The notes under the pieces are model-generated. The model was given only the letters and a program-made list of their open reading frames with translations. It was not told where the DNA came from and ran no database searches. Both the position numbers and the translations under genes were made by a program. Shown one piece after another: positions 1 through 13,555 of a stretch of DNA of 64,000 nucleotides. Origin of the DNA: Acidobacteriota bacterium (GTDB lineage: Bacteria; Acidobacteriota; Thermoanaerobaculia; Multivoradales; J023); the NCBI GenBank assembly GCA_029263355.1, contig JAJCXQ010000420.1:1540-65539 (forward strand), read 5' to 3'. Position 1 is the first letter of the stretch. Every line of letters begins with the position of its first letter.

Positions 1-340
1 CGGTGGAGTGTTTGCCATCCATCATCTTGGGCTCAAAATCGAGACCCGCGGCGGTGCAAAACTTGCCCATGTCGGTCAAGTAGCAGTCGGAGATCATCTC
101 CAACCCCATGCTGATCAGGCTGTCGTGAATCTTGCGCTGGCGATGGAGCTCGTTCTCTTCCAGGTACTCCTCGGGGAGGGTGAATTCCATCTGCTTGAAC
201 CGATAGTCGTGCATCCGGGCAGCATAGACATGACAGCCCACGAGCTTCGACTGAAACGCCTTACCCAGATTCAGGGATGTCTGGATGGCGCGATTCGAGT
301 GGTCTGAGTTGTCCACAGGGACGTAGATCGTCTCGTACAT
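1..340 (-). CDS. universal stress protein (UspA family), N-terminal part; gene runs off the left edge
   Basis: Not in the ORF track because it is open at the window edge. Reverse-strand ATG at 338-340 is preceded by GGAG. Translation MYETIYVPVDNSDHSNRAIQTSLNLGKAFQSKLVGCHVYAARMHDY... fits the UspA N-terminal pattern (hhVPVDxSxxSxxAl). Confidence 0.65.
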   Translation of the reverse strand, partial: MYETIYVPVDNSDHSNRAIQTSLNLGKAFQSKLVGCHVYAARMHDYRFKQMEFTLPEEYLEENELHRQRKIHDSLISMGLEMISDCYLTDMGKFCTAAGLDFEPKMMDGKHST

Positions 341-350
341 GTTGTCTCCG

Positions 351-2168
351 TTAACTGACTGTCTTGCCGTTCCGGCGCCGCACCATAGCGATAAAAAACA
401 ATTCGAGACCTAGGACGGTCAATCCAGCGCGGGTCATCGGACCCACCGGCGAAGGCTTTTCCAGCGGCTCGAGGTAAACCTGATACCAACCTGACAAGCC
501 GCGTTTGTTGCCACGCTCGCGATTGAAGCCGTCCCACACTGAGAAGGCGATCGGCAGGAAGGTGTCTTCCTCGAAGCTCAAGCTGCTGCTCTTACGCTTA
601 CGCTTGAAGATCACCGACCACTCACCGTTGTCGTAACTCGCCTGGGTGACGACCTCGTCACCACCTTCGGTTGGGCTCAGCGCGCTGCTGCCACGCCCTT
701 CGTAACGCTGCCCAGCGGACTTCGCCAAATCCATGAACCACAGATCCACTGGATTCTGAACGTCTCCAAACAGGAAATAAGGCTGCTGCACCCCTTCGGG
801 ATTCTTGAGCGGGAACTGCAGCGCAATGGCGTCCGAGAACTCAGTCTCCAGGGTGTCGGAGGCAGCGGAGTCGTCACCCTCTTCCTCACCCCAGAAATCG
901 TCACCGCCATCATCGCCAGCGCCGTCGTCTTCGGTGACCTCGTCGTCACCCCAGAAGCTGCCCCCGTCGTCTTCGTCCTCAGCAACTTCCTCGTCACCCC
1001 AGAAGCTGCCGCCATCGTCTTCCGTATCAGCTTCGCCTGAGGCGTCGCCGGACTGGCCGATCTCGGCCAAATGCTCGTCCCAACTCGGCGCTTGCAGATC
1101 TGGACCGTTGACACCGCCGGTTTCGGCCCGCATGTCGTTCCAGGTCACGCGAAAAGCGATCTCTTCTTCGTTGTGGATCGCTTGGGCGGTGACTTCGACG
1201 GCGGAGGGATAGAAGTTGCGGCCGGGTTCGACAATTTGGCCGAAGAGCGGGAATATCGCCGCAGGAGCCGCGGCAAAAAGCTCGGCGCCCTGCTCGAGAT
1301 CGATCTCGGTCTCGACCGGCACCGAACGCAGGAGATTGGCGTAAGGAGTATCACCTTCATCTCGCGGGCCACCGGCCAACGACAACATGTAGTCGACGAT
1401 CGCCCACATACGCTCTTGGCTCTCTTCCGGTGTGGCACCAAGGTTGTTGTGGAAGCCGGGCATCGGCGTGCCGTTGAAGCCAGTCGACATAGAACGGAAA
1501 ATGTCTTCCCGTGTTGCGCCACCACGAAACGTCCAAGGCTTGCTGAGATCGGCCACCTTGATGTGGTTGCCCCAATCGTCGACCAAGGTGGGCGCCGAGT
1601 TGCCGTCACCGCGGCCATACTCACCGTGACACCGCGCACAGCCGGTCTCTTCGTAAACTTGCCGACCAAGCGTCTGTGCAGCCTCGAGATCGTACTTCGG
1701 CGGCTCGGGAATGGTGATGGTCTCGGGATTCTGCAGCTCAGGATCTTCGAACCAATCCGAGAACGACTTGATGTACTCCACCACCGCGGAGACCTCTGCA
1801 TCCGAGAGATAGGCCTCGGTGAAGGCTGGCATCGAAGTGCCGTACAAACCGAGACGGATCGCCCGTGTGAGATCGGCGTCGGTTGGAATGTTGCCGGTGG
1901 TGGTCATCCGGACTTTGTATTTGCCGCTGGTGAAGTCACGGGGGCGAGGCTTGAGACGCGAAGCTGCAACACCTTCACCGTCGCCTTGATCTCCGTGGCA
2001 ATGCCCGCACCACTTGGTATAAACCTCGAATCCAAGCTCGTTGCTCGCATCCTGCGCGGACAGCGAAGCCGGCAACAGGGCGATGACGAGGCCCACGACG
2101 AGGATGGTGCGCATGCTGAAGCCCCTGACAGCCGCTGAGTCGAACATTTCCGATCGCGATGTACTCAT
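351..2168 (-). CDS. secreted diheme c-type cytochrome fused to a C-terminal EB_dh/DOMON-like heme-binding domain
   Basis: Two CxxCH motifs (CGHCH, CARCH). Sec signal MRTILVVGLVIALLPASLSAQD. C-terminal block ...FSVWDGFNRERGNKRGLSGWYQVYLE resembles the ethylbenzene-dehydrogenase gamma-like (EB_dh) fold. The ATG at 2166-2168 overlaps the upstream stop by 1 nt (TGATG); an alternative start is 2114. The ORF-track extension to 2333 overlaps the upstream gene. Confidence 0.75.
   Translation of the reverse strand: MSTSRSEMFDSAAVRGFSMRTILVVGLVIALLPASLSAQDASNELGFEVYTKWCGHCHGDQGDGEGVAASRLKPRPRDFTSGKYKVRMTTTGNIPTDADLTRAIRLGLYGTSMPAFTEAYLSDAEVSAVVEYIKSFSDWFEDPELQNPETITIPEPPKYDLEAAQTLGRQVYEETGCARCHGEYGRGDGNSAPTLVDDWGNHIKVADLSKPWTFRGGATREDIFRSMSTGFNGTPMPGFHNNLGATPEESQERMWAIVDYMLSLAGGPRDEGDTPYANLLRSVPVETEIDLEQGAELFAAAPAAIFPLFGQIVEPGRNFYPSAVEVTAQAIHNEEEIAFRVTWNDMRAETGGVNGPDLQAPSWDEHLAEIGQSGDASGEADTEDDGGSFWGDEEVAEDEDDGGSFWGDDEVTEDDGAGDDGGDDFWGEEEGDDSAASDTLETEFSDAIALQFPLKNPEGVQQPYFLFGDVQNPVDLWFMDLAKSAGQRYEGRGSSALSPTEGGDEVVTQASYDNGEWSVIFKRKRKSSSLSFEEDTFLPIAFSVWDGFNRERGNKRGLSGWYQVYLEPLEKPSPVGPMTRAGLTVLGLELFFIAMVRRRNGKTVS
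880..1030 (-). repeat. imperfect tandem repeats encoding an acidic (D/E)-rich FWG(D/E) linker
   Basis: The core tcaccccagaa recurs at 885, 945 and 983. The protein reads DDGGSFWGDEEVAEDEDDGGSFWGDDEVTEDDGAGDDGGDDFWGEEEGDD. Confidence 0.7.
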
Positions 2169-2977
2169 CAGTGCATCTCGACGGCGCGTGGCTGGTGGCC
2201 GGTAAAATCGTAGAGGAAGAGGATGACGTTCCACATCTCTTCTTCGGTCAGGAAGTTTTCCCATGCAGGCATGGCGCTCTGCCACGGACCGCCTTCTTCT
2301 GGCATGCCGGGAGCACCCTTGGAAATCCGCCAAAATAGAAATGCTTCACGCAGCATGGCGATGGTGCCCGGATCTTGGAAGTTGGTCGGAATCGGATTCA
2401 GAGCGTGCGCATACATGCCGGCGCCCGCCATGAGATCGCCGTGACAGTAGAAGCAATTTTCGTAATAGATCGCACGCCCCAGCTCAAGACGCTCCTTGAA
2501 TTCTTCCGGATTCGACGTCTCGAGCTCACGGTAGGGATTGTCGGCGGTACCGAGAGCGAGCTCACTGTCGTGCACGGTGATCGAATCCGGCGGCGCCGGA
2601 TGCACCGTGCGGGCAAAAAATGGCGCCTGGGGCGTGGCCGTCATGTCGGCATAGATGCGAAACGCCACCAACGCTGGAATGGCCAACGCGACCAGCACCA
2701 GTAACGGCCGATAACGCGGCTCGACGACGAACGCCTGAATCGGCTGCCAGAATTCGCTCATGCGCCGTGAGTCGGTCAGCACAAACGCAAACAGCGACAG
2801 GCTAATGATGCCCATGTAAATTTTGATCACCGAAACGGGCACCGGCACCACAAAAACGTAGTTCAGGACCAGGAACATGCCGAGCCACCAGGCCGCAACC
2901 CAGGTCAATATGCCTACCCGGCGCCAGCGCAGCACGAGCATCACCGCTACGAAGGCTATTAGGACCCACCAATTCAT
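2168..2977 (-). CDS. membrane-anchored monoheme cytochrome c (about 4 N-terminal TM helices)
   Basis: 269-aa ORF with a hydrophobic N-terminal half and CFYCH in the C-terminal soluble domain. ATGA overlap with the upstream gene at 2974-2977. Confidence 0.8.
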   Translation of the reverse strand: MNWWVLIAFVAVMLVLRWRRVGILTWVAAWWLGMFLVLNYVFVVPVPVSVIKIYMGIISLSLFAFVLTDSRRMSEFWQPIQAFVVEPRYRPLLVLVALAIPALVAFRIYADMTATPQAPFFARTVHPAPPDSITVHDSELALGTADNPYRELETSNPEEFKERLELGRAIYYENCFYCHGDLMAGAGMYAHALNPIPTNFQDPGTIAMLREAFLFWRISKGAPGMPEEGGPWQSAMPAWENFLTEEEMWNVILFLYDFTGHQPRAVEMH

Positions 2978-3789
2978 CCTTCTTCGCCTCTCTTGTCTGC
3001 CAGGTGTTGCACCAAGGTGGCGAGCTCGCCCATGGTCACTTGATCCAGGCCATCGTCGCCAGGGTGATTATAAAGCTTCGACAGCAGCTGATCAGGGCTC
3101 AGACGCGCGCCGATGCCTCTGAGGCTTGGGCTGACGGGATCGGTGGGCGTGTCGGCATCGTGACAGCGCGCGCAACCGTAGGTGTCGAGCACCGTGTTTC
3201 CGCCAGGCACCGTGTTTCCGCCAGACACATCGCCGCCACCGGCTTCGGCCACCAATACTTCACCGCCATCGCCGCCCCCAGCTGGGCCCCCACCGAGCAC
3301 ACCACCGGTGTAAACCAACTTGGTCTCCATGGTCACGGTCGCCTGCCCACCCAGGGTCTGCAAATAGGCGATCACTGCCAAGATTTCCTGGTCGGTGAGG
3401 CCAATCGGCGGCTTGTTGATCTTGGGCATTCCTGGGCTGTAGCCATCGACGATGTAAATGTCGGGCTCGTAGAGCGCCTCGGCAATGTAGTCGATGGCGG
3501 TGTAACCCTCAGCGCGACGGCGTTCCGCCGCTCGCACCGCGAGCCCATCCATATCGGGGAAACGTAATGAACCCGTCTTGCCGATCGTGTGGCAAGTCGA
3601 GCAAATACCCTTACCCAAGTAGATCTCTTTGCCGATCTCGACCATCTCCTCGGTGGAGACGTCAGACGCGATCTCGATGACTTCGGGAGGCTGAACCTCT
3701 TTCTGAGGCACAGCTTGACCAACCATCATGTAGAAGCCGGTCAAGCCCACCGTGAGTACGGCGAGTTGCAATGGAATCGGTATCTTCAT
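2974..3789 (-). CDS. diheme c-type cytochrome with N-terminal anchor/signal
   Basis: CSTCH and CARCH motifs separated by a Gly-rich linker. Its start overlaps the stop of the upstream gene by 1 nt (TAATG at 3787-3791). Confidence 0.8.
   Translation of the reverse strand: MKIPIPLQLAVLTVGLTGFYMMVGQAVPQKEVQPPEVIEIASDVSTEEMVEIGKEIYLGKGICSTCHTIGKTGSLRFPDMDGLAVRAAERRRAEGYTAIDYIAEALYEPDIYIVDGYSPGMPKINKPPIGLTDQEILAVIAYLQTLGGQATVTMETKLVYTGGVLGGGPAGGGDGGEVLVAEAGGGDVSGGNTVPGGNTVLDTYGCARCHDADTPTDPVSPSLRGIGARLSPDQLLSKLYNHPGDDGLDQVTMGELATLVQHLADKRGEEG
3190..3225 (-). repeat. 18-bp tandem duplication inside the diheme cytochrome gene
   Basis: caccgtgtttccgccagg / caccgtgtttccgccaga (17/18 identical), encoding GGNTVPGGNTV. 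Confidence 0.85.
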
Positions 3790-5810
3790 TACGTCTTCAG
3801 AGTTGAGGGTGGTTCGTTGCTAGCGGTGTTGTAGCCCGAAGCGCCCGTCGACAACCCACCGCTGGCGCTCATGGCAGTCGCCCCAGGTCCGGCCGAAAGA
3901 CCGGGCGCAGCCGACAAACCGGGGGCCGCCGACAGATCGGGTGCGGTAGACGACTCCGGCGCGGTGCCTTTGAGCTCCTGATACTTCTTCCTGTTGGTCA
4001 AGCCGGTCAGGTAGAAGATGAACCCGATCAACGCGAAGAAGACCAGCACCGTGAAGGAGACGACTTGGGTCGCAAAACCCAGCGTTGGCGTGTAGGCGTC
4101 AACCGAGGTGTCTCGGATCACACCGAAGACGTGCCAATGCTGGCGCAATCCGGCGCGGACATAACCCATCAGGCCCATGAGCCAAGTGAAGGTGACCGCC
4201 AGCATGATCAGCAAATACTGGGAGATCGGTCGGATCTTCCCCCAATTTGTTTCGGCGGTCTCGGCCTTGCGCAGCAGGAAGACGTCGATCAAGGTAACCA
4301 GCACCAGCGCCGCTAGCACGGATCCTACCTGTGGCACCGAGAATCCAATTCGGGTCTTGGCATCAACAAAATAGCCGGCGATACCGTAGCCGATCACCGT
4401 GGTGGCAGCGCCGGCGAAGATCAGGAACTGTACAAAGTTGGCTTGTTTGGCCCACGACACGGTTGGGATCTTGCCACTGCGTCGATAGAGCACGAAGCTC
4501 AAGAAGGTGGTGAGAATGAGAATGTTGACGGCGGTGTTTTTGGCCGACATCACCCCGAGGTAACCCAGCATTGGATGTGACGAGCCGCCCATCGCCTGGA
4601 TCTCTTCGGTGGTGGAGAGGATCGAGCGCGGTGTCGCCCAGATGGCGAAGCAGATCGTGATCACCACCAGCATCGGCCAGATGAAGGAACGGTAACGTTC
4701 CGCACCCTTGATTCGGCCCATGCCCAACCATAAGTACCAGTTGGCGAACAGGAATAGGTTGCCGATCAGGATCGCCTGGATAATGAATAGCCAGGAGAAC
4801 GCGCCGCCCATCATCGTCAAGCCCATGGTCTGCGAGAAGGCGTAGATCTCAGATGCCAGCCAGTAGCCGGCGAAAGGCAAAGGCAAGAGGCCGCAGATGG
4901 CGACGAAGTTGCCCATGTAACCCATCCAGTCGTAATGGGCGCGCTCTTCGTCGGTTTTGGCTTGGAGAAATTGGAACGCGGCGTAGGCGGCGGCGATCGA
5001 GCCGCCGAAGGCGACATTGGCGATGATGCGGTGGATGTTGATTGGCATCCAGGTGTAATTGGTGATCGCCTCCCAGGTCGAGATCACCGCGCCGCTCTCG
5101 GCAATACCCGCCGGTGTCGACATGAACGTCAGCCAGGCGTTGGCGATGAACATCAACGCGGTGCCAACCACATTGAGCATCAGGCCGAGGAAGAGATGTA
5201 CCCGCGGCGAAAACTTGCCCCAGCCGTAGTAGTAGCTGTAGAGGAAGCCCGCTTCAGCGAAGAACAACAACACGTAGGGCAGAAAAGTCGGCGAGAACAC
5301 CGACATCAGATAGTTGGTGAACTTCGGGTACAGGATGATCAACATGAAGGTCAATCCGGCGCCCAAACTAGCGGTGAACGCAAACGACGCCGACAGCAAC
5401 TTGGTGAACTCGTAAGCCAGCTTGTCGTAACGCTCATCCTTGGTTCGATAGCCGATGAACTCGATGATCAGAGCGAAGATCGGCACCGCCAGCACGAAGG
5501 CGGCAAACAGTAGATGGAGCTGGGCCACAATCCAGATAGCGACCCGGCTGCCGATTCGAGGGACGGTGCGATACTCCGCTTCCTCGTAGGGCTTTTCGAG
5601 CTCTTTGGCGGCTGTCGCCTCCGCGGACTCCCGCAGCGCCTGGGCACGCGGCGTCTCCGCCGGGGCCTCGACCGAAGCCTTCGTACGTACCGGCGACTTG
5701 AACGCCATTTTGTCGTCGAAGGTACTGAGGAACTTGAACGAGGCCACGATCACGGCGACCATGGCCAAAACCCCGAACAATATCGGGAGAACAGGCGGCT
5801 TACGGCTCAT
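3789..5810 (-). CDS. cytochrome bd subunit I (CydA)-superfamily polytopic membrane protein, no CydB partner
   Basis: By-eye alignment to E. coli CydA: AQLHLLF (His19 region), FFAEAGFLYSYYYGW (Glu99 region), IANAWLTFMSTPAG (ANGWMQNP motif), NIHRIIANVAFGGSIAAAY (His186 helix). Start chosen at the ATG at 5808-5810 (MSRKPPVLPILFG...), downstream of the preceding stop. The C-terminal tail is low-complexity (SAAPGL repeats). Confidence 0.7.
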   Translation of the reverse strand: MSRKPPVLPILFGVLAMVAVIVASFKFLSTFDDKMAFKSPVRTKASVEAPAETPRAQALRESAEATAAKELEKPYEEAEYRTVPRIGSRVAIWIVAQLHLLFAAFVLAVPIFALIIEFIGYRTKDERYDKLAYEFTKLLSASFAFTASLGAGLTFMLIILYPKFTNYLMSVFSPTFLPYVLLFFAEAGFLYSYYYGWGKFSPRVHLFLGLMLNVVGTALMFIANAWLTFMSTPAGIAESGAVISTWEAITNYTWMPINIHRIIANVAFGGSIAAAYAAFQFLQAKTDEERAHYDWMGYMGNFVAICGLLPLPFAGYWLASEIYAFSQTMGLTMMGGAFSWLFIIQAILIGNLFLFANWYLWLGMGRIKGAERYRSFIWPMLVVITICFAIWATPRSILSTTEEIQAMGGSSHPMLGYLGVMSAKNTAVNILILTTFLSFVLYRRSGKIPTVSWAKQANFVQFLIFAGAATTVIGYGIAGYFVDAKTRIGFSVPQVGSVLAALVLVTLIDVFLLRKAETAETNWGKIRPISQYLLIMLAVTFTWLMGLMGYVRAGLRQHWHVFGVIRDTSVDAYTPTLGFATQVVSFTVLVFFALIGFIFYLTGLTNRKKYQELKGTAPESSTAPDLSAAPGLSAAPGLSAGPGATAMSASGGLSTGASGYNTASNEPPSTLKT
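3889..3960 (-). repeat. about 4 imperfect 18-bp repeats encoding the (S/T)AAPGL tail of the CydA-like protein
   Basis: gcagccgacaaaccgggg / gccgccgacagatcgggt / gcggtagacgactccggc, with a flanking degenerate copy. The protein reads APDLSAAPGLSAAPGLSAGPG. Confidence 0.6.
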
Positions 5811-5835
5811 CTGACTCAAAACGACTCCAGCAGTC

Positions 5836-6402
5836 TCATGATCCGGCCTCGCTCTGCAGGCGGCGCACGTAGGCGATGATCGCCCAACGGTCACGCGGCG
5901 GAATCGGATATTTGTAGCCCGACATCAAGCCGAGGCCATTGGTGATGACGTCGAACATCTGGCCGTCAGGTATGTCAAGCAACCTTTGCTGGTGGAGGTC
6001 CGCGGATTCGATCTGCGCCCGTTCCCACAGCACCCCTTTGCCGGTACCACGCTGATTGTGGCACGGGGCACAGTAGATGTCGTAGCGCTCTTTGCCGCGC
6101 AGCACGAGCTCTTCATCAATTTCAAAAGGAATCTTGGAGACGATCGCCCCAGCTTCATCGAGGCCGGTGTAGAACGCCGTGTCTTCATGCAACTCGCCGC
6201 GCGCCACGGTACCTTCCAGCGGCAATCGCATCGTCGCGCCATCGTAGAAGAAGTCGCTCGCCGCTTGCGCCCGATACTTCGGTTGATGGTCCATGTTGGG
6301 ATTGGGATGAATCGGCGGACGAGGTGAGGTCGCACCGCGCCAACAACCAGACACTGTGACCAACAGCAAGACTGCGATTACCTTGGCTCTTGTGCCGTTC
6401 AC
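5836..6402 (-). CDS. lipoprotein monoheme cytochrome c (ActE-like)
   Basis: CAPCH motif and lipobox LLVTVSGC. GTG start at 6400-6402 is preceded by GAGGA. The ORF-track extension to 6561 overlaps the actB 3' end. Confidence 0.7.
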   Translation of the reverse strand: MNGTRAKVIAVLLLVTVSGCWRGATSPRPPIHPNPNMDHQPKYRAQAASDFFYDGATMRLPLEGTVARGELHEDTAFYTGLDEAGAIVSKIPFEIDEELVLRGKERYDIYCAPCHNQRGTGKGVLWERAQIESADLHQQRLLDIPDGQMFDVITNGLGLMSGYKYPIPPRDRWAIIAYVRRLQSEAGS

Positions 6403-6455
6403 TGCTGTTCCTCTAGCTTTTCGCCGGCTTTCCGTCAACAGATTCTCCTCGCGGC

Positions 6456-9422
6456 TCACGCCCAGTCGGGGTTGGGGTTCCGCAACCGGCCGAGGTAGGA
6501 GGTTCGCGGTCGATTGTTGAGCTCGCCCAGCAGGTCGTAGTCGCGATCCGATCCTTTCCATTGTGAGACGCTGCTCTCAGAGTCGCGAATGTTGCCGAAG
6601 ACGATGGCTTCGGTGGGACAGGTCTGCTGGCAGGCGGTCTTGATCTCGCCGTCGCGCGGCGTCCGGCCTTCTTTCTTGGCGGTGATTTTGGTCTCGCTGA
6701 TGCGCTGCACACAGTAGGTGCATTTTTCCATCACGCCGCGAGAGCGCACCGTCACGTCCGGGTTCATTGCCATCTTCATCAACTCGGGCGTGTCTTTGGT
6801 GTAGTTGAAGAAGTTGAAGCGCCGTACCTTGTAGGGACAGTTGTTCGAGCAGTAACGCGTGCCGATGCAACGGTTGTAGACCATGGCGTTCAAGCCTTCG
6901 TCATCGTGCACGGTCGCGGCGACCGGGCACACTTGCTCGCAGGGTGCGTTCTCACAATGCATGCAGGGAATCGGCTGGAAGGCCACCTCGGGCTCTTCCG
7001 GCTTTCCTGAAAAATAGCGGTCGATCCGCAGCCAATGCATTTCCCGTCCGCGTGACACTTGCTCTTTGCCGACCACCGGGATGTTGTTTTCACTCTGGCA
7101 AGCGATAACGCAGGCGTTGCAGCCGATGCACGAGTTGAGATCGATCGCCATACCCCACTGTGGCGACTTGTCATAGGAGTGCGACGGGAAGAGTTGGTGC
7201 GATTCGTCAGGGTCGTGCTTATGGCCCACAAAGTGCGGGTCCTCACGATACTCCTCGAGGGTCGCCTCGCGAATGAGCGGCCGCCCCTCCATGTCCCAAT
7301 GCTCTTGGGTCTGCGCCAACAAATGTGAACCCTTGACTTTAGTGAGACTCAAGCCGCCATCGAAATAGGGAGCGGACGAGTCACGCAGCGCGTAGGCGTT
7401 GGCGCCGACGCCATCACCCACTCGGCCGGCTGACGTGCGACCGTATCCCAGGGCCAGCGCTACCGAGTCATCGGCCTGTCCCGGCAATACAAAAATCGGC
7501 AACTCGAGGTTACGGTCACGGTAACCCAGACTCACCATATCGCCGCTTTCGAGGTCAAATTGCTCGGCGGTCGCGGGGCTGATCAGCGCCGCGTTGTCCC
7601 AGGTGATTTTGGTGATGGCGTCGGGCAACTCTTGGAGCCACGAGCTATTGGCAAAACGGCCATCGAACGTTGCCCGTGAGGCATGCAGGGTAAGCTCGAG
7701 GGCGCCATCAGCTTCGGGGGACACTAGCTCGGGGACGTTGATCTCGGTTACGGCGACAGCCGGCGAGGCACCCCCCTCGGCCACGTCTTGCGCTCTTCCG
7801 TCGTGCAGCACCCGGCGCCACTTGGCTTCGAACCCCTCGGCGCCAAGCAAACTGAGCCAGGTTTCGCGTACCACGTCGTACCCCGACCGAGCGGCCGCAC
7901 CCCGCACCAATCGTTCAACGATTTCGAGCTCGCTGCGGCCACCGAGCAGCGGTGCGATCAGCGGCTGGACAACACTCAACGTGCCGTCAGCGGAGCGGGC
8001 GTCTCCCCAAGCTTCGAAAGCATGTGCCGCCGGCAAATGCCAGTGGACTTGCCGCGAGGTCTCATCGAGATGACTCGACAAATGAATACTTTGCCCAACC
8101 TCTGCTAGAGCGCCCGCAAAATCGAGATCTGCTGGCGCAGAATACACCGGGTTGCCACCTAGGATCAGCAGCGTCTCGACGGCCCCACCACGCATGTCTT
8201 CGACCAGTGAGACCAGAGCATCGGGGCCGCCGTAGGCAACGTCGTCGAGCGCATGCAGGGTCAAGGTTGAACCCACAGCACCTAGCGCCTGGTTCATGGC
8301 GAGAGCCAGAGCATGCACCTCAGGCGGCTGGCTGCGACCAGCGATAACTACTGCCTCGCCGGGAGACGCCGCCAGATCCGCTGCGATCATCTTGGCTCGC
8401 GCCCCTGCCTCACCCGGCAACTCAGCTGCCGACGCGGTGACCGTAACACCTAGGTCACGCGCCACTGCGACCGCGAACGACGCCACCTCGCGGCTCTTCA
8501 GACGGACGCGATGATCAGCGGTCGATCCGGTGATCGACAGGCTGCTTTCGACCGCATAGAGCCGATTGACGTCGTCGGACGGCCCCGCGACTCGGCGTCC
8601 CTTGGCATAACCCCGGGCCGCAGCCAGGCTGTCGCTCTCGGTGTGCAGAATGTCGGCGTCGAGAGTCAGGATCTTGCGCGCTTGGTCGAGGTGATAAACC
8701 GGCCGACTCGCGACACCGGTGGCCATCTCGCAGCCGACGAAGATGTTGGCGTCGCCGAGCGGCTCATGGACGACCCACTTGGCTTGTGGCATCGCGCTCG
8801 CCAACTCCGTCGCTAGCCTTGCCAGGGCTGGCGAACAGTGGGCGCCGCTCAAGATCGCTAGACCAGCGCCACCGGTCGCTTCCAACTCGCTACGTCGTGC
8901 GTCGAAGAAGGCGTCGAAAGCCAGCCAGTCGGAAGGCGCCGACTCGGTGTCTTCGGCTCCGCGATGGCGCACCTTGCCCGATCGGTCAGGATCGAAGAGG
9001 CTCAACGGCGAGGCCTGAGTCCAAGTACTGGCTGCCCCCTGAGAGGCGGGGTGGAGCTCGTTACCTTCAACCTTGGAGGGCCGGCCCTCGTGGCTCTCCA
9101 CCACCACGCCGTAGGCGCTGCTGCCGAAAGGCAGGGTCGACGCAAAATGTTTGGGGACGCCCGGAATCGTGTACTCGGGAGCGTTGACATAGGGGACGAT
9201 CTTCTCCACCGGACGACGGCAACCCTCGAGCCCGACCATGGCGAAGGAAGCGCCCATCAGCGACATCATCGTCCGACGACTCACCGCATCGGGCGGGGAG
9301 TCGGCGCCATCGGGAAACTCAGGCTGCGCGGCGAGCTCTTCCTGCACCGCAGGCGAGCCGAGGAGCCGGTCGAGACTCCGCCAGTATTGCTTGCTTTCGG
9401 GCGGGGATTTCAACGATGACAT
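6456..9422 (-). CDS. actB: alternative complex III subunit ActB (Tat-exported Mo-pterin-like domain fused to a 4-cluster FeS domain)
   Basis: Begins MSSLKSPPESKQYWRSLDRL...SRRTMMSLMGASFAMVGLEGC (twin-arginine signal). C-terminal ferredoxin motifs CIGCNACVIAC, CMHCENAPCEQVCP, CIGTRYCSNNCPYKVRRFNF, CTYC...TACQQTCP. The ORF-track start at 9866 lies inside actA and was rejected. Confidence 0.85.
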   Translation of the reverse strand: MSSLKSPPESKQYWRSLDRLLGSPAVQEELAAQPEFPDGADSPPDAVSRRTMMSLMGASFAMVGLEGCRRPVEKIVPYVNAPEYTIPGVPKHFASTLPFGSSAYGVVVESHEGRPSKVEGNELHPASQGAASTWTQASPLSLFDPDRSGKVRHRGAEDTESAPSDWLAFDAFFDARRSELEATGGAGLAILSGAHCSPALARLATELASAMPQAKWVVHEPLGDANIFVGCEMATGVASRPVYHLDQARKILTLDADILHTESDSLAAARGYAKGRRVAGPSDDVNRLYAVESSLSITGSTADHRVRLKSREVASFAVAVARDLGVTVTASAAELPGEAGARAKMIAADLAASPGEAVVIAGRSQPPEVHALALAMNQALGAVGSTLTLHALDDVAYGGPDALVSLVEDMRGGAVETLLILGGNPVYSAPADLDFAGALAEVGQSIHLSSHLDETSRQVHWHLPAAHAFEAWGDARSADGTLSVVQPLIAPLLGGRSELEIVERLVRGAAARSGYDVVRETWLSLLGAEGFEAKWRRVLHDGRAQDVAEGGASPAVAVTEINVPELVSPEADGALELTLHASRATFDGRFANSSWLQELPDAITKITWDNAALISPATAEQFDLESGDMVSLGYRDRNLELPIFVLPGQADDSVALALGYGRTSAGRVGDGVGANAYALRDSSAPYFDGGLSLTKVKGSHLLAQTQEHWDMEGRPLIREATLEEYREDPHFVGHKHDPDESHQLFPSHSYDKSPQWGMAIDLNSCIGCNACVIACQSENNIPVVGKEQVSRGREMHWLRIDRYFSGKPEEPEVAFQPIPCMHCENAPCEQVCPVAATVHDDEGLNAMVYNRCIGTRYCSNNCPYKVRRFNFFNYTKDTPELMKMAMNPDVTVRSRGVMEKCTYCVQRISETKITAKKEGRTPRDGEIKTACQQTCPTEAIVFGNIRDSESSVSQWKGSDRDYDLLGELNNRPRTSYLGRLRNPNPDWA

Positions 9423-10057
9423 GAGGTGCAATCTTGAGGAGGTTGAATCTGGCGCTCTTCCTTGGCCTGAGCGGCAAAAGCCAGTTGATTCTTGCCCGGT
9501 TTCCAGGTTGTATTGGTGATCTGGTCGAATTCGCGCAAATGAAGGTCGGGAGCGCGATGACACTCGAGGCACCATGCCATCGACAGCGGCTCCGTCTGGG
9601 TCACGACTTCCATGCTCCGGATATCCCCGTGGCAACTGGAGCAGCCGACTCCGGCTCGAACATGAACCCCGTGATTGAACACTGCGTAGTCGGGAATATT
9701 GTGGACTCGAACCCACTCTACCGGCTGGCCGGAACTGAAGCTGTCGCGGATCACCGCCAGCTTCTCGCTGTCGCGTGTCACCAACTGATGGCAGTTCATA
9801 CAGACCTGGGTGGGAGGTACCGATGCCACTGCGGCGATCTCGACCTGCGCGTGGCAATATCGGCAATCGAGCTCCAACTCGCCAGCGTGTAGCTGATGGC
9901 TGAACGGTACCGGCTGTTCGGGCTGATAGCCGACATCGGTAAACTCCGGAGAGAAGTAATACCAGATCAGCACAGGAGCCACCGCCGCTACCGCCACCAA
10001 ACCGCCGACCAAATAGAGCGGAGCTTTATTGGTCCATTCTGGAAAAATCTGTGGCAA
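9410..10057 (-). CDS. actA: alternative complex III pentaheme cytochrome c subunit ActA
   Basis: Five CxxCH motifs (CRYCH, CMNCH, CSSCH, CLECH, CTSCH) after one N-terminal TM helix. TTG start at 10055-10057 lies 8 nt after AGGAGG. 13-nt overlap with actB. Confidence 0.85.
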   Translation of the reverse strand: MPQIFPEWTNKAPLYLVGGLVAVAAVAPVLIWYYFSPEFTDVGYQPEQPVPFSHQLHAGELELDCRYCHAQVEIAAVASVPPTQVCMNCHQLVTRDSEKLAVIRDSFSSGQPVEWVRVHNIPDYAVFNHGVHVRAGVGCSSCHGDIRSMEVVTQTEPLSMAWCLECHRAPDLHLREFDQITNTTWKPGKNQLAFAAQAKEERQIQPPQDCTSCHR

Positions 10058-10438
10058 GGACTAACCTCCTGCCAGGTGGAGGATTAAGGTCACTGTCTTG
10101 ACTTGAGCGCGGGAAGGATAGCCGTGCAGTTCGGGAACTGTCAAGGGACGAAGCTAGGCCCCCGGGCGTAGCTTCCCGAGCCTCGACGACCGTCCTACCT
10201 GCACCTCTGAGAGCTGACGGTATGACGATCATGAGACCTGAAGGTATGACGATGAGAATGACGGTCAGGAGGCTATCCGAGGTCTCCTGGATGCGATAAC
10301 ATCCACATTTAGACTCGTCTCGTCCATCTCGGCAGTGAACGCCAAAGGGCAACGGGTGAGGCGTAGATCGGATCGGATGACTTACGTATCACCGCACGAG
10401 TCGAGAGACTCTATCCTCGCTCCGCGCGGGAGGTGACA
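10058..10438. promoter_or_regulatory. divergent intergenic region between the actA operon and the receiver-domain gene
   Basis: 381 nt non-coding. Direct repeat GGTATGACGAT at 10218-10228 and 10243-10253. Inverted repeat GAAGCTA/TAGCTTC at 10150-10156 and 10169-10175. No promoter hexamers could be assigned confidently. Confidence 0.3.
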
Positions 10439-10916: not shown

Positions 10917-11483
10917 TTGGATCATCCGGTCAACAGGTGTCACGTCAACAGGCATCAGATTGTGAGTGCGCCACCTTTCGAGATCCTGCTCGTCGAGGAC
11001 AATCCGGACCACGCGGAGCTTGTCAAACGCAGCCTGGAAGATCATCCGATCGACAACACGATCCATCATCTCAGCGATGGCGAAGCGGCTCTCGCCTACC
11101 TGTTTCGGCCAGGAGTTGACACCGATCTCCGTGGCCACCATCGCCCCCACATGGTGTTGCTTGATCTTCGCCTTCCCAAAGTCGATGGCCTCGACGTGTT
11201 GCGTGAAATTCGTAACGCCCGAGAGCTCGACGAGGTGCCGGTGATCATTCTGACCACATCGAGTGCCGAGTCGGATGTCAAAAAAGCCTACCAATCACAT
11301 GCCAATAGCTTCCTTGTCAAACCGAATGACTTCCAGACGTTCGACGAGCTCATCAAGGCCCTTGGCACTTATTGGCTAGGCTGGAACCACGATCAGGGCA
11401 AAGCGCTGTCGAAATCGAGCACCACGCCTCGACGTGTCCGGAATCAGACTCCGCCCCCGTATTCCTCCAGCGAAGGTTCATGA
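10917..11483 (+). CDS. single-domain response regulator (Rcp1-like receiver)
   Basis: ILLVEDNPDHAELVKRSL...VLLDLRLPKVDG...ILTTS...ANSFLVKP. The start is uncertain: ATG 10917 or GTG 10962. Confidence 0.75.
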   Translation: MDHPVNRCHVNRHQIVSAPPFEILLVEDNPDHAELVKRSLEDHPIDNTIHHLSDGEAALAYLFRPGVDTDLRGHHRPHMVLLDLRLPKVDGLDVLREIRNARELDEVPVIILTTSSAESDVKKAYQSHANSFLVKPNDFQTFDELIKALGTYWLGWNHDQGKALSKSSTTPRRVRNQTPPPYSSSEGS

Positions 11484-11959
11484 GCCAATTCGAGACCAAG
11501 ACGATGAACGGAAATGCCCTGAACATTCTCTTCGTGGAAGATAATCCAGACCATGCCGAACTGGTGATGCGCAGCTTTCAAGATCACCGCGTCGCCAACA
11601 CCATCCATCATCTCACCGATGGCGAAGCTGCCCTCGACTATCTGCTGCGGCGCAACGCCTACAGCGATCCGCAGAAGAGCCCACGTCCTCACGTGGTGCT
11701 GTTGGACCTACGATTGCCCAAGGTAGATGGCCTGGAAGTACTCAAAGTCATCCGCAGCTCGCAAGGTTTGGAAAAGATCCCCGTTGTCGTACTCACGACC
11801 TCGCATGCGGAGCTCGACGTCGGCAAGGCTTACGAATATCACGCCAACAGTTACCTTGTGAAACCCTTAGACTTCGAAAAGTTCACTAATTTGATGGATG
11901 ACCTGGGTTTTTATTGGCTCGGATGGAACCACTATCCCTGGCCAGGCACCAGTTCGTGA
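11480..11959 (+). CDS. single-domain response regulator (Rcp1-like receiver), tandem paralog
   Basis: ILFVEDNPDHAELVMRSF...VLLDLRLPKVDG...VLTTS...ANSYLVKP. ATGA overlap with the previous gene at 11480-11483. Confidence 0.8.
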   Translation: MSQFETKTMNGNALNILFVEDNPDHAELVMRSFQDHRVANTIHHLTDGEAALDYLLRRNAYSDPQKSPRPHVVLLDLRLPKVDGLEVLKVIRSSQGLEKIPVVVLTTSHAELDVGKAYEYHANSYLVKPLDFEKFTNLMDDLGFYWLGWNHYPWPGTSS

Positions 11960-11992
11960 TTCGCTTCCACCGGAAATAATACGGAGCAGCCG

Positions 11993-13555
11993 GTGAGCAA
12001 ACAGGACATTAATGTTCTATTGGTCGAAGATGAAGAGGCTCACGCCGAGCTGATACGCAGATCGTTCGAACCTCGCGCCGAGATGATGCGCCTGACCGTG
12101 GCGACCAGCCTGCGAGAGGCGCGCTCTCACCTGAACGAGACCAAACCGGATCTCGCGTTGATCGATCTCTTGCTTCCCGATGGCAAGGGGATCGAGTTAC
12201 TTCCGGCAGAAGACGAGGAACCGCAGTATCCGATCGTCATCATGACTAGCCATGGTGACGAAGAGGTCGCGGTCGAAGCGATGAAAGCTGGGGCGCTGAA
12301 CTACGTCGTCAAGTCGGGAGAGACCCTTTCGAACATGCCTCAGATCGTTGAGGGCGCGCTGCGGGAATGGGGGCATGTCGTCGAACGTCGACGAGCCGAG
12401 GAGGCTCTACAGGTCAGTGAGGCGCACTTTCGGTCGTTGATAGAAAACGCTCTCGACATCATCACCGTGGTCGACCAACAAGGGACCATCCACTACGCCA
12501 GCCCATCGATGGAGAGGGTCCTCGGCTACACTCCTGATGATCGTACCGGAACCAACATGTTCGGTTTGCTACATCCGGAAGACAGAGAGCACGTCATCCG
12601 AAAGATTTTTTCGTCGTTCGATCAACCCGGTAGCACAAACTTTTTCGAGTCACGTTACCGCCACAGAGATGGCTCGACGAGAGTTCTAGAGGCCGTCGCC
12701 AGCACCCGAGCTCAGACTGATGGCGAGATGCGAGGAGTGATCAATTCTCGCGACGTGACCGACCGCAAGCGTGACCAGGAGGAGAATGCGAGGCTCGAGG
12801 AACAGCTCCGCCACTCACAAAAATGGGAAATCATCGGCAGCCTGGCGGGCGGCATCGCCAACGAGTTCAACAATATGTTGACGCCGATTCTGGGCTTCGC
12901 ACAAATGGCGATCGACGAAGCGCCCGCCGGCAGCAAGGTCCAAAAGAGATTGGAGCACATCCTCACCGCCGCCGACCGCTCCCGCGGGCTGGCGGAACAG
13001 ATCCTCGCCTTCAGCCGGCAGGCTGAGCCCCAGCGTAAAGCGGTGCAACTCGACGACATCGTCGCCGATGCCCTGAAGCTGCTGCGCCCCTCGCTGCCGA
13101 CCAATATCAAGATCCGCTACGAAGTCGACCTCGTGCACAATTCCGTCATCGCGGATCCCGATCAGATGCATCAAGTCTTGATGAATCTTTGCACCAATGC
13201 CCATCATGCGATGCTGGAGGGAGGGACGCTGGAAGTCCGCCTCACCGATATCGAGGTGGATTCAGAGAGCGAACGGGTCCATCAACGTCCTCGAGAAGGT
13301 TCTTATGTACGTCTGACGATCAGCGACACCGGTCACGGCATGGATTCCGAGACCAAAGAACGGATCCTCGAGCCCTTCTTCACCACCCGCGGTACCGCCG
13401 AACGGAGCGGACTCGGCTTATCGGTGGCGCATGGCATCGTAGTGAGCCATGGCGGTGAGCTCATCGTCGAGAGTGAGCCGGGCAAGGGGACCTCGATTCA
13501 CGTCTATCTGCCGCAAGCCGAACGCGTGCCCGAACGGGAAGCCAAAGCTTCCTGA
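11993..13555 (+). CDS. cytoplasmic REC-PAS-HisKA-HATPase hybrid sensor kinase with a degenerate H-box (His to Asn)
   Basis: N-terminal receiver (VLLVEDEEAHAELI...DLALIDLLLPDGKG). PAS region (FRSLIENALDIITVVDQQGTIHYASPS). H-box reads LAGGIANEFNNML where this kinase class has AHDFNN. N, G1 and G2 boxes are intact (NLCTNAHHAM, DTGHGM, GLGLS). No TM segment. Confidence 0.8.
   Translation: MSKQDINVLLVEDEEAHAELIRRSFEPRAEMMRLTVATSLREARSHLNETKPDLALIDLLLPDGKGIELLPAEDEEPQYPIVIMTSHGDEEVAVEAMKAGALNYVVKSGETLSNMPQIVEGALREWGHVVERRRAEEALQVSEAHFRSLIENALDIITVVDQQGTIHYASPSMERVLGYTPDDRTGTNMFGLLHPEDREHVIRKIFSSFDQPGSTNFFESRYRHRDGSTRVLEAVASTRAQTDGEMRGVINSRDVTDRKRDQEENARLEEQLRHSQKWEIIGSLAGGIANEFNNMLTPILGFAQMAIDEAPAGSKVQKRLEHILTAADRSRGLAEQILAFSRQAEPQRKAVQLDDIVADALKLLRPSLPTNIKIRYEVDLVHNSVIADPDQMHQVLMNLCTNAHHAMLEGGTLEVRLTDIEVDSESERVHQRPREGSYVRLTISDTGHGMDSETKERILEPFFTTRGTAERSGLGLSVAHGIVVSHGGELIVESEPGKGTSIHVYLPQAERVPEREAKAS

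Follow-up and report, generated by a model that had tools for sequence, protein, structure and literature searches.

ActABE-type genes of alternative complex III precede a candidate OR-N2 bd-like module in Acidobacteriota, with matching ActCDF genes in a separate operon

Alternative complex III (ACIII) is known from Rhodothermus marinus, Flavobacterium johnsoniae and Roseiflexus castenholzii (ACIII-aa3 supercomplex, act-cox clusters), and its subunits fall into two functional groups, ActABE for electron transfer and ActCDFG as the membrane and quinone part (as quoted in PMC3534657). Linkage between the genes of ACIII and those of an oxidase is standard (PMC9386147). For nitrite oxidisers and Mn oxidisers, the principal terminal oxidase is proposed to be one of the OR-N or "bd-like" proteins, which belong to the superfamily of cytochrome bd oxidases. 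Both systems meet in Nitrospirales, where actABCDE is followed by an OR-N5 bd-like oxidase, and in Ca. Manganitrophus noduliformans TO_3/TO_4, where ACIII-like components occur with bd-like proteins (PMC12342949; PMC9040806). Here we examine a 64,000-nucleotide stretch of acidobacterial DNA (G000:C420:1540-65539, hereafter the window) from a metagenome-assembled genome (MAG) of 10.25 Mb in 948 contigs that is 86.7% complete. On its minus strand, homologues of ActA, ActB and ActE directly precede a CydA-like gene that fits the OR-N2 type and three further cytochromes c, and ActC, ActD and ActF genes lie on another contig of the same genome, C883. Literature searches found no description of an acidobacterial operon of ActABE and OR-N2, nor of act genes split into ABE and CDF operons, and we agree with an earlier note on this DNA that the arrangement is biochemically uncharacterised. 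What is new is a variant of gene organisation joining two known systems, the parts of which were already known.

We consider it probable that the ActABE half of a genuine ACIII is co-transcribed here with an OR-N2-type core and a Usp/PCP_red gene, that its ActCDF half is the one encoded on C883, and that the complex feeds the bd-like oxidase. All seven open reading frames (ORFs) on which the earlier note was built are present, tightly packed on the minus strand, with a 13-nt overlap, a 17-nt gap, a 25-nt gap, a 1-nt overlap, a 4-nt overlap and a 1-nt overlap at the successive junctions from actA to the last cytochrome gene, c7. The parts it had named, ActA, ActB, a CydA-superfamily protein and further cytochromes c, one of them an EB_dh fusion, agreed with Pfam and TIGRFAM profile searches. 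The seven genes are not the whole operon, since a conserved eighth gene of the Usp/PCP_red type begins 10 nt downstream.

The first gene (9410-10057, minus strand) encodes ActA, a pentaheme cytochrome c of 215 aa with five CxxCH motifs, an N-terminal transmembrane (TM) anchor at residues 14-32 and multiheme Pfam matches. ActB (6456-9422, minus) has about 988 aa when read from Met149 of its ORF and fuses a cofactor-less, QrcB-like domain of the molybdopterin type to a QrcC-like four-cluster ferredoxin region (Fer4_7/Fer4_11); it has no heme and no TM helix, and its export by the Tat route is predicted by the variant signal model TIGR04519 (34 bits against a cutoff of 20.6). The third gene (5836-6438, minus) gives a protein of about 200 aa from a TTG start at 6438, with a GAGGAG ribosome-binding site 7 nt ahead of it. 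It had been read as an additional lipoprotein monoheme cytochrome c, and the lipobox (VSGC) and single CxxCH bear this out, but the protein is an ActE homologue rather than an extra cytochrome. Identity to the canonical ACIII paralogs on contig C103 of the same genome is 40% for ActA, 36% for ActB over its full length and 33% for ActE across the domain, and because all three are homologous to those subunits the upstream module is identified, by homology, as ActA-B-E, the electron-transfer half of ACIII. The multiheme anchored ActA, the Tat-type ActB fused to a four-cluster Fe-S domain and the monoheme lipoprotein ActE are thus all in the window; the NrfD-type ActC and ActF and ActD are absent from it and are supplied by C883, so that the subunits are not gathered in one act operon but divided between C420 and C883. 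The window ActB also differs from canonical ActB in the absence of the N-terminal Cys motif of an Fe-S cluster, with STLPFGSSAYG aligned to STCGGCTAGCG of a canonical paralog (L005:2669-5977), and PF04879 found no match in it, unlike in the C103 paralog.

That the operon holds no NrfD/PsrC-like gene had been noted before and is upheld: neither the operon nor the 1.5 kb of contig that lies outside the window has one, and of 83 related loci surveyed, 82 have none within 10 kb. At the one exception, L033, the nearby NrfD gene belongs to a separate canonical ACIII on the opposite strand. The surveyed loci include closed chromosomes, whose flanks are unrelated, and an NrfD gene just past the window is ruled out, the 1.5 kb ahead of it holding the Usp/PCP_red gene alone. 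Elsewhere in the source genome, C883 starts 78 nt before an ActC gene (PF03916, E = 1e-23) that is followed by ActD (PF11821, E = 1e-64) and ActF (33-41% identical to canonical ActF), with no ActE between them and no ActA or ActB; the C-terminus of an ActB was not found in the 78 nt upstream of ActC. There are three ActB genes (C420, C200 and C103) and three ActC genes (C883, C103 and one truncated at the end of C200) in this genome. C200 as the upstream part of C883 was ruled out, as C200 ends in the N-terminal part of a different ActC and shares no overlap with C883. Downstream of the orphan ActCDF, and co-oriented with it, are genes for a heme-copper oxidase (HCO) in the order X308-CoxA-CoxC-X175-CoxB; in the source genome these genes lie another 10.5 kb along C883. 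A CarboxypepD_reg-like protein of about 300 aa adjoins CoxA near orphan or unsplit ActCDF (L098:6640-7566; C883:13843-14526; L109:11088-11720); its gene is upstream and co-oriented in L098, L101 and C883 and on the opposite strand in L109.

Co-occurrence was then scored in 42 genomes, of which 26 have ActABE beside the CydA-like gene (type 1) and 16 have the bd-like core alone (type 2). An ActC of the C883 type (59-85% identity) that adjoins no ActB is present in 25 of the 26 type-1 genomes, as opposed to none of the 16 type-2 genomes, all of whose ActC genes sit directly next to an ActB. In at least 15 type-1 genomes (G001 included) the distance between the operon and the orphan ActCDF is about 7-40 kb, and the two are convergent. 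In closed chromosomes that carry the ActABE and bd-like operon, such as G002, C883-type ActC-D-F is far from any ActA, ActB or ActE, the two halves being 12 kb to 2.5 Mb apart, and the counts of ActB and ActC genes in closed chromosomes match one to one.

Operons in which the two halves have stayed together came to light through a rule that failed. In an even sample of 150 Acidobacteriota screened for the C883-type ActC, 10 genomes carried it, and the expectation that such an ActC implies a bd-like gene broke down, the CydA-like gene being absent from 4-5 of these 10. Of the five that do have it, four (G049, G164, G169 and G190) show ActB abutting the CydA-like gene and an orphan ActC, and the fifth, G092, keeps its act genes unsplit. 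The failed rule thereby led to unsplit and HCO-inserted operons that strengthen the pairing of ActABE with ActCDF. The order in G092 is ActA-B-E-C-D-F, then X308 and cox genes, with identities of 66, 58 and 52% to the window ActA, ActB and ActE and of 77, 60 and 57% to ActC, ActD and ActF of C883; G121 and G145 have a c5-like cytochrome c gene between ActE and ActC, and G076 and G140 have CoxB-CoxA-CoxC at that point. Across unsplit-operon ACIII, identity to the window proteins is 56-66% for ActA and 51-60% for ActE. Given these orthologous operons in G092, G121, G145, G076 and G140, window-type ActABE and C883-type ActCDF are one ACIII lineage with the gene order ABE|CDF, that is A-B-E-C-D-F rather than the canonical A-B-C-D-E-F. 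In the lineage of the window a bd-like module follows ActE, and CDF with its HCO is now a separate operon. Oxidase modules seem to have been inserted repeatedly at the E|C junction, and the position shared in G076 and G140 suggests that the HCO and bd-like modules are functionally equivalent. In the corresponding loci, L107 (G076:C1:828000-847500) and L108 (G140:C3:43000-62000), the HCO lies between ActE and ActC of an otherwise intact ACIII operon, and the inserted CoxA is just 35% identical to the CoxA beside orphan ActCDF. Taken together, the source genome has the same subunits as the ACIII of R. marinus, F. johnsoniae and R. castenholzii, again linked to terminal oxidases, but it differs in the split and in that the oxidase linked to ActABE is bd-like and not of the heme-copper kind.

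The fourth gene of the operon (3789-5810, minus) encodes the CydA-like subunit, of 673 aa and about 15 predicted TM helices. A check of this protein against the CydA profile had been proposed, and PF01654 matched with E = 8e-27, over positions 2-248 of 418 and so limited to the N-terminal half of the profile; a sequence search of the PDB with the protein also gave matches to CydA chains. By alignment to solved CydA chains and a family alignment of 26 sequences, His99 corresponds to H19 of E. coli CydA, Tyr179 to E99, Glu186 to E107, Tyr191 and Tyr193 to F114 and F116, His205 to H126 and His260 to H186, and H99, Y179, E186, Y191, Y193, H205 and H260 are conserved in 24-26 of the 26 diverse homologues. 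The reported retention of the His19, Glu99 and His186 motifs thus stands for the two histidines but not for Glu99, which is Tyr179; the acidic residue that is kept, Glu186, is the E107 equivalent. In an AlphaFold2 model with 15 long helices, the Q-loop that had been put forward for inspection is lacking: the helix bearing the H186 equivalent is one of the consecutive helices 255-283, 287-308, 311-335 and 338-364. A Foldseek comparison of the model with the PDB returned CydA and AppC as top matches (E from 6e-10 to 5e-6) and CydB as a weak one further down, with NrfD, PsrC and ActC not among them, which points to a CydA fold rather than an NrfD fold; a cryptic NrfD-like domain in the C-terminal half was ruled out, the matches being to CydA and CydB alone. 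Neither CydB (PF02322), whose absence had been noted from the operon and holds for the whole source genome, nor a second PF01654 gene of the OR-N1 or CydA' kind was found in this genome, and the latter is missing from six closed carrier chromosomes as well.

The earlier note had pointed to surveys of the bd superfamily that describe cytochrome-c-associated bd-like clades, and in this it was correct. The OR-N2 signature is H99, Y183, E190, Y197, Y199, H213 and H269 with 14 helices (Table S6, Murali, Gennis and Hemp 2021, bioRxiv), and OR-N2 operons hold several cytochromes c and an EbdC homologue (supplement text, Murali et al. 2021). Placed by these signature residues rather than by a tree, the CydA-like protein fits the OR-N2 subfamily, and c5, c6 and the EB_dh-bearing c7 stand beside its gene as in those operons. 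It resembles the NIDE0901-type bd-like oxidases of Nitrospira, Nitrospina and Ca. Manganitrophus in its roughly 14 TM helices with one extra N-terminal helix, in keeping H19, H186, H126 and E107 with Tyr at E99, in having no Q-loop and no CydB, and in its association with several cytochromes c and an EbdC-like subunit. Unlike the OR-N2 of Nitrospirales, it has no OR-N1/CydA' paralog in the six closed chromosomes and no NXR context, the EbdC-like domain of the operon forms one protein with a diheme cytochrome c, and ActABE lies upstream. An OR-N1 plus OR-N2 CydAA' pair has been proposed for Nitrospirales and Nitrospinota (PMC12342949; PMC10839748); with a single PF01654 gene in the source genome and in the six closed chromosomes, that pairing does not apply here. 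The act-linked clusters of Nitrospirales and Manganitrophus keep ActC (NrfD) in the operon and have OR-N5, a 10-helix a/b pair, whereas the oxidase gene here is of the OR-N2 type and the NrfD subunits are elsewhere. With CydAB(X) of E. coli, Geobacillus and Mycobacterium the protein shares the N-terminal helices, the fold and the two heme-ligand histidines, but it is not a full-length CydA with all ligands: it has no CydB, no Q-loop or quinol site, a Tyr for Glu99 and five to six extra helices, and its donor is presumably cytochrome c.

Three cytochrome genes complete the core. The first, c5 (2974-3789, minus), encodes a membrane-anchored diheme cytochrome c of 271 aa with two CxxCH motifs, an N-terminal hydrophobic segment and a match to Pfam Cytochrom_C; c6 (2168-2977, minus) encodes a monoheme cytochrome c of 269 aa with one CxxCH, four hydrophobic segments (about 4 TM) and a match to Cytochrome_CBB3; and c7 (351-2168, minus) encodes about 605 aa from Met56 of its ORF, a diheme cytochrome c fused to an EB_dh domain (EbdC/NxrC-like, heme b) with a C-terminal TM. 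The c7 ORF has two CxxCH, a TM segment at residues 633-651 and matches to PF09459 (E = 3e-13) and to TIGR03477, the DMSO-reductase-type-II-gamma model (E = 3e-22). A word-indexed search of public data found more than 7,500 proteins of the CydA-like family (the 120 listed matches all have at least 68% identity), 226 clusters at 50% identity score E <= 1e-30, and relatives occur in at least 588 species-level genomes, the search for their loci having used an alignment of 15 sequences. In the survey of gene neighbourhoods, which the earlier note had suggested and for which 83 loci were searched by tblastn with the window proteins, c5-c6-c7 follows the CydA-like gene directly in 62 of 62 loci with enough flank, and Usp/PCP_red follows the core in 52 of 57. 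ActA-B-E is upstream of the CydA-like gene in 52 loci from Thermoanaerobaculia, Vicinamibacterales, Polarisedimenticolia and some differently labelled MAGs, and the order with its short junctions is kept down to 63% CydA-like identity in three acidobacterial classes. In 17 loci no ActA-B-E was found within at least 4.5 kb upstream, with the CydA-like protein still 61-71% identical; these come from Rhodothermales, Bacteroidota, Calditrichia, Fibrobacteria, Myxococcota, a Spirochaetaceae-labelled MAG and several Acidobacteriota. Since c5-c6-c7 is constant across loci from which ActABE can be missing, the core of the CydA-like gene with c5, c6 and c7 is an autonomous module and ActABE a lineage-specific addition.

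Under the explanation that we prefer, the two halves would assemble into one ACIII and menaquinol would be oxidised at ActC, the subunit encoded on C883. Electrons would pass along the Fe-S chain of ActB and the five hemes of ActA to the lipoprotein ActE, from there to the membrane-bound cytochromes c5, c6 and c7, and on to the b hemes of the CydA-like subunit, with His260 at the low-spin and His99 at the high-spin site. The acceptor, most probably O2, would be reduced at this subunit, with protons arriving by a path through Glu186, and energy coupling would presumably go with these steps; the same ACIII may feed the HCO too. Cytochrome c is proposed as the donor because of the three core cytochromes, the N-terminal CxxCH extensions of some Fibrobacteria homologues, with which such a donor is consistent, and the positional equivalence of the HCO in G076 and G140. 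Those apparent extensions, a possible cytochrome c fusion, are found in the CydA-like ORFs at L070:1371-3440 and L076:9503-11659.

Several points weigh against this explanation. Assembly of the products of both operons is something we infer from genes alone, and separate operons, each with its own oxidase, are an odd regulatory design for one complex. The halves are 0.3-2.5 Mb apart in five closed chromosomes, and one type-1 genome, the 3.5-Mb MAG G011, has no orphan ActC. The sequencing runs that hold the window sequence are DNA runs only, with a biofilm metagenome, perhaps the source sample, as the best match, and transcripts are not among them. For the CydA-like protein, the E99 position is a Tyr, no equivalent of M393 (the second low-spin heme ligand) can be assigned by alignment, and confidence in the AlphaFold2 model is only moderate (pLDDT 69.9, pTM 0.69). 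Finally, no member of the OR-N group has ever been demonstrated to reduce O2 (PMC10839748; PMC3578206), and O2 as the acceptor is the weakest step of the proposed path.

A bolder form of the same idea, which we hold only tentatively, is that split ACIII and OR-N2 make one obligate supercomplex, a quinol-to-O2 respirasome with a cytochrome-c-oxidising, copper-free oxidase of the bd type, in which the E|C junction is a "socket" for either an HCO or a bd-like module and Usp/PCP_red serves cofactor maturation or regulation. The role of Usp/PCP_red might then fall, in Rhodothermales, to a radical-SAM/SPASM-PCP_red protein and a NUBPL-type ATPase. If this were true, it would add a further class of cytochrome c oxidase.

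It is also conceivable, though we think it unlikely, that split ACIII feeds a bd-like module that is no O2 reductase and that instead reduces NO, H2O2 or an oxyanion of the chlorite or nitrite type, connects cytochrome c with the quinone pool in reverse electron transport, or acts as a membrane anchor or electron hub. The lack of any recorded activity for an OR-N enzyme (PMC10839748; PMC3578206) would fit this, as would the Tyr at the E99 position together with an E445-equivalent region that is not acidic. The genomes already have one or more HCOs, EB_dh domains are typical of periplasmic oxyanion and alkyl oxidoreductases, and the family is found in lineages labelled Thermoanaerobaculia, whose known cultured members are anaerobes. 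Against this, the family shows almost no variation at His99 (the high-spin heme ligand), Glu186 and His205 (H126), and the folds nearest to the model are all O2-reducing bd oxidases. Operon linkage of ACIII with a terminal oxidase is usual, and by analogy the HCO at the same E|C junction in G076 and G140 argues for an oxidase role of the bd-like module. One locus (L009) further has SCO1 and UbiA/heme-O-synthase-like genes directly upstream.

The earlier note had itself taken the CydA-like subunit to stand in for the NrfD-type ActC and ActF and to supply the quinol (or heme) site; on that reading ActA and ActB would dock directly on it in a self-contained, NrfD-free quinol:cytochrome c or quinol:O2 complex. 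The seven genes are tightly packed and co-transcribed, in 52 loci the operon is free of NrfD genes, the only large polytopic subunit that it encodes is the CydA-like protein, and Lucker et al. (2013) speculated that bd-like proteins could be ACIII-like if they bind quinone (PMC3578206). This hybrid now looks very improbable, as a matching orphan ActCDF is present on C883 and in 25 of 26 type-1 genomes but in none of the 16 type-2 genomes, unsplit ActABECDF orthologues exist, the core in lineages that have no ActABE is similar enough to give no sign of special adaptation for docking or quinol, and the CydA-like protein has neither a Q-loop nor an NrfD-like fold. Least credible of all is that a mere historical accident, operon break-up after a rearrangement, has put ActABE and the bd-like genes on one transcript, with no functional interaction, for although many phyla have a working bd-like core that does without ActABE and the E|C junction is apparently prone to rearrangement, the ActABE to CydA-like order with its short junctions is kept in the 52 loci across Thermoanaerobaculia, Vicinamibacteria and Polarisedimenticolia, to 63% identity, and linkage of ACIII and oxidase genes is a recognised functional pattern (PMC12342949; PMC9386147).

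The split arrangement bears on more than this genome. With the output subunits ActA and ActE encoded upstream of an OR-N2 core, and an HCO in the same place elsewhere, ACIII acting through c-type cytochromes becomes a testable donor for the OR-N proteins, and the operon offers a useful handle on an uncharacterised and widespread oxidase family. ACIII would also appear to be encodable as two operons split at the boundary between its functional modules, and calls of an "incomplete ACIII" in Acidobacteriota MAGs may be false.

The eighth gene enters the window at positions 1-340 (minus) and continues off both window and contig (C420:2-1879, more than 626 aa). Its product is a cytoplasmic Usp-Usp-PCP_red protein (Usp E = 7e-37, PCP_red E = 5e-20) with two to three PCP_red units and a CxxC...CxxC stretch. 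Behind the core of a Rhodothermales locus (L077:14792-19567) come, in addition, a gene for a radical-SAM/SPASM-PCP_red protein, a small ORF and a gene for a NUBPL/ParA-type Fe-S carrier ATPase, and at L009:17627-19866 the core is followed by a ParA/CbiA protein and a small PCP_red protein; Usp/PCP_red and these neighbours may together serve to mature or regulate the bd-like enzyme. Upstream of actA in the same L009 locus, from a "Deltaproteobacteria"-labelled MAG, the UbiA-family (heme O synthase-like) and SCO1/SenC copper-chaperone genes occupy L009:3738-5328. In-frame stops or frameshifts in CydA-like, ActB or ActC genes of long-read MAGs (L062, L038, L053, L057 and L075, and ActC of G001 and G017) look like assembly errors rather than pseudogenes.

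Scans of the window for sigma-70 promoters and terminators gave nothing informative, sigma-70-like sites being no commoner than in shuffled sequence; a consensus scan places a weak promoter-like site of this kind, TTGACA-18-TATCCT, upstream of actA (10115-10144, minus). Divergent from the operon, at 10917-13555 on the plus strand, are genes for two single-domain response regulators and a hybrid REC-PAS-HisKA-HATPase kinase, which could be regulators of the operon; the arrangement was not kept in three other loci inspected. Within the core genes, the EB_dh domain of c7 is split by a highly acidic, repetitive insert of DDGGSFWGD[ED]EV... units (window about 860-1100, ORF residues about 410-490), and the Pfam match accordingly falls in two stretches around it. 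Judging from the translations, the C-terminal tail of the CydA-like protein carries SAAPGL-type repeats (window 3889-3960) and the linker of c5 a GGNTVPGGNTV duplication (window 3190-3225).

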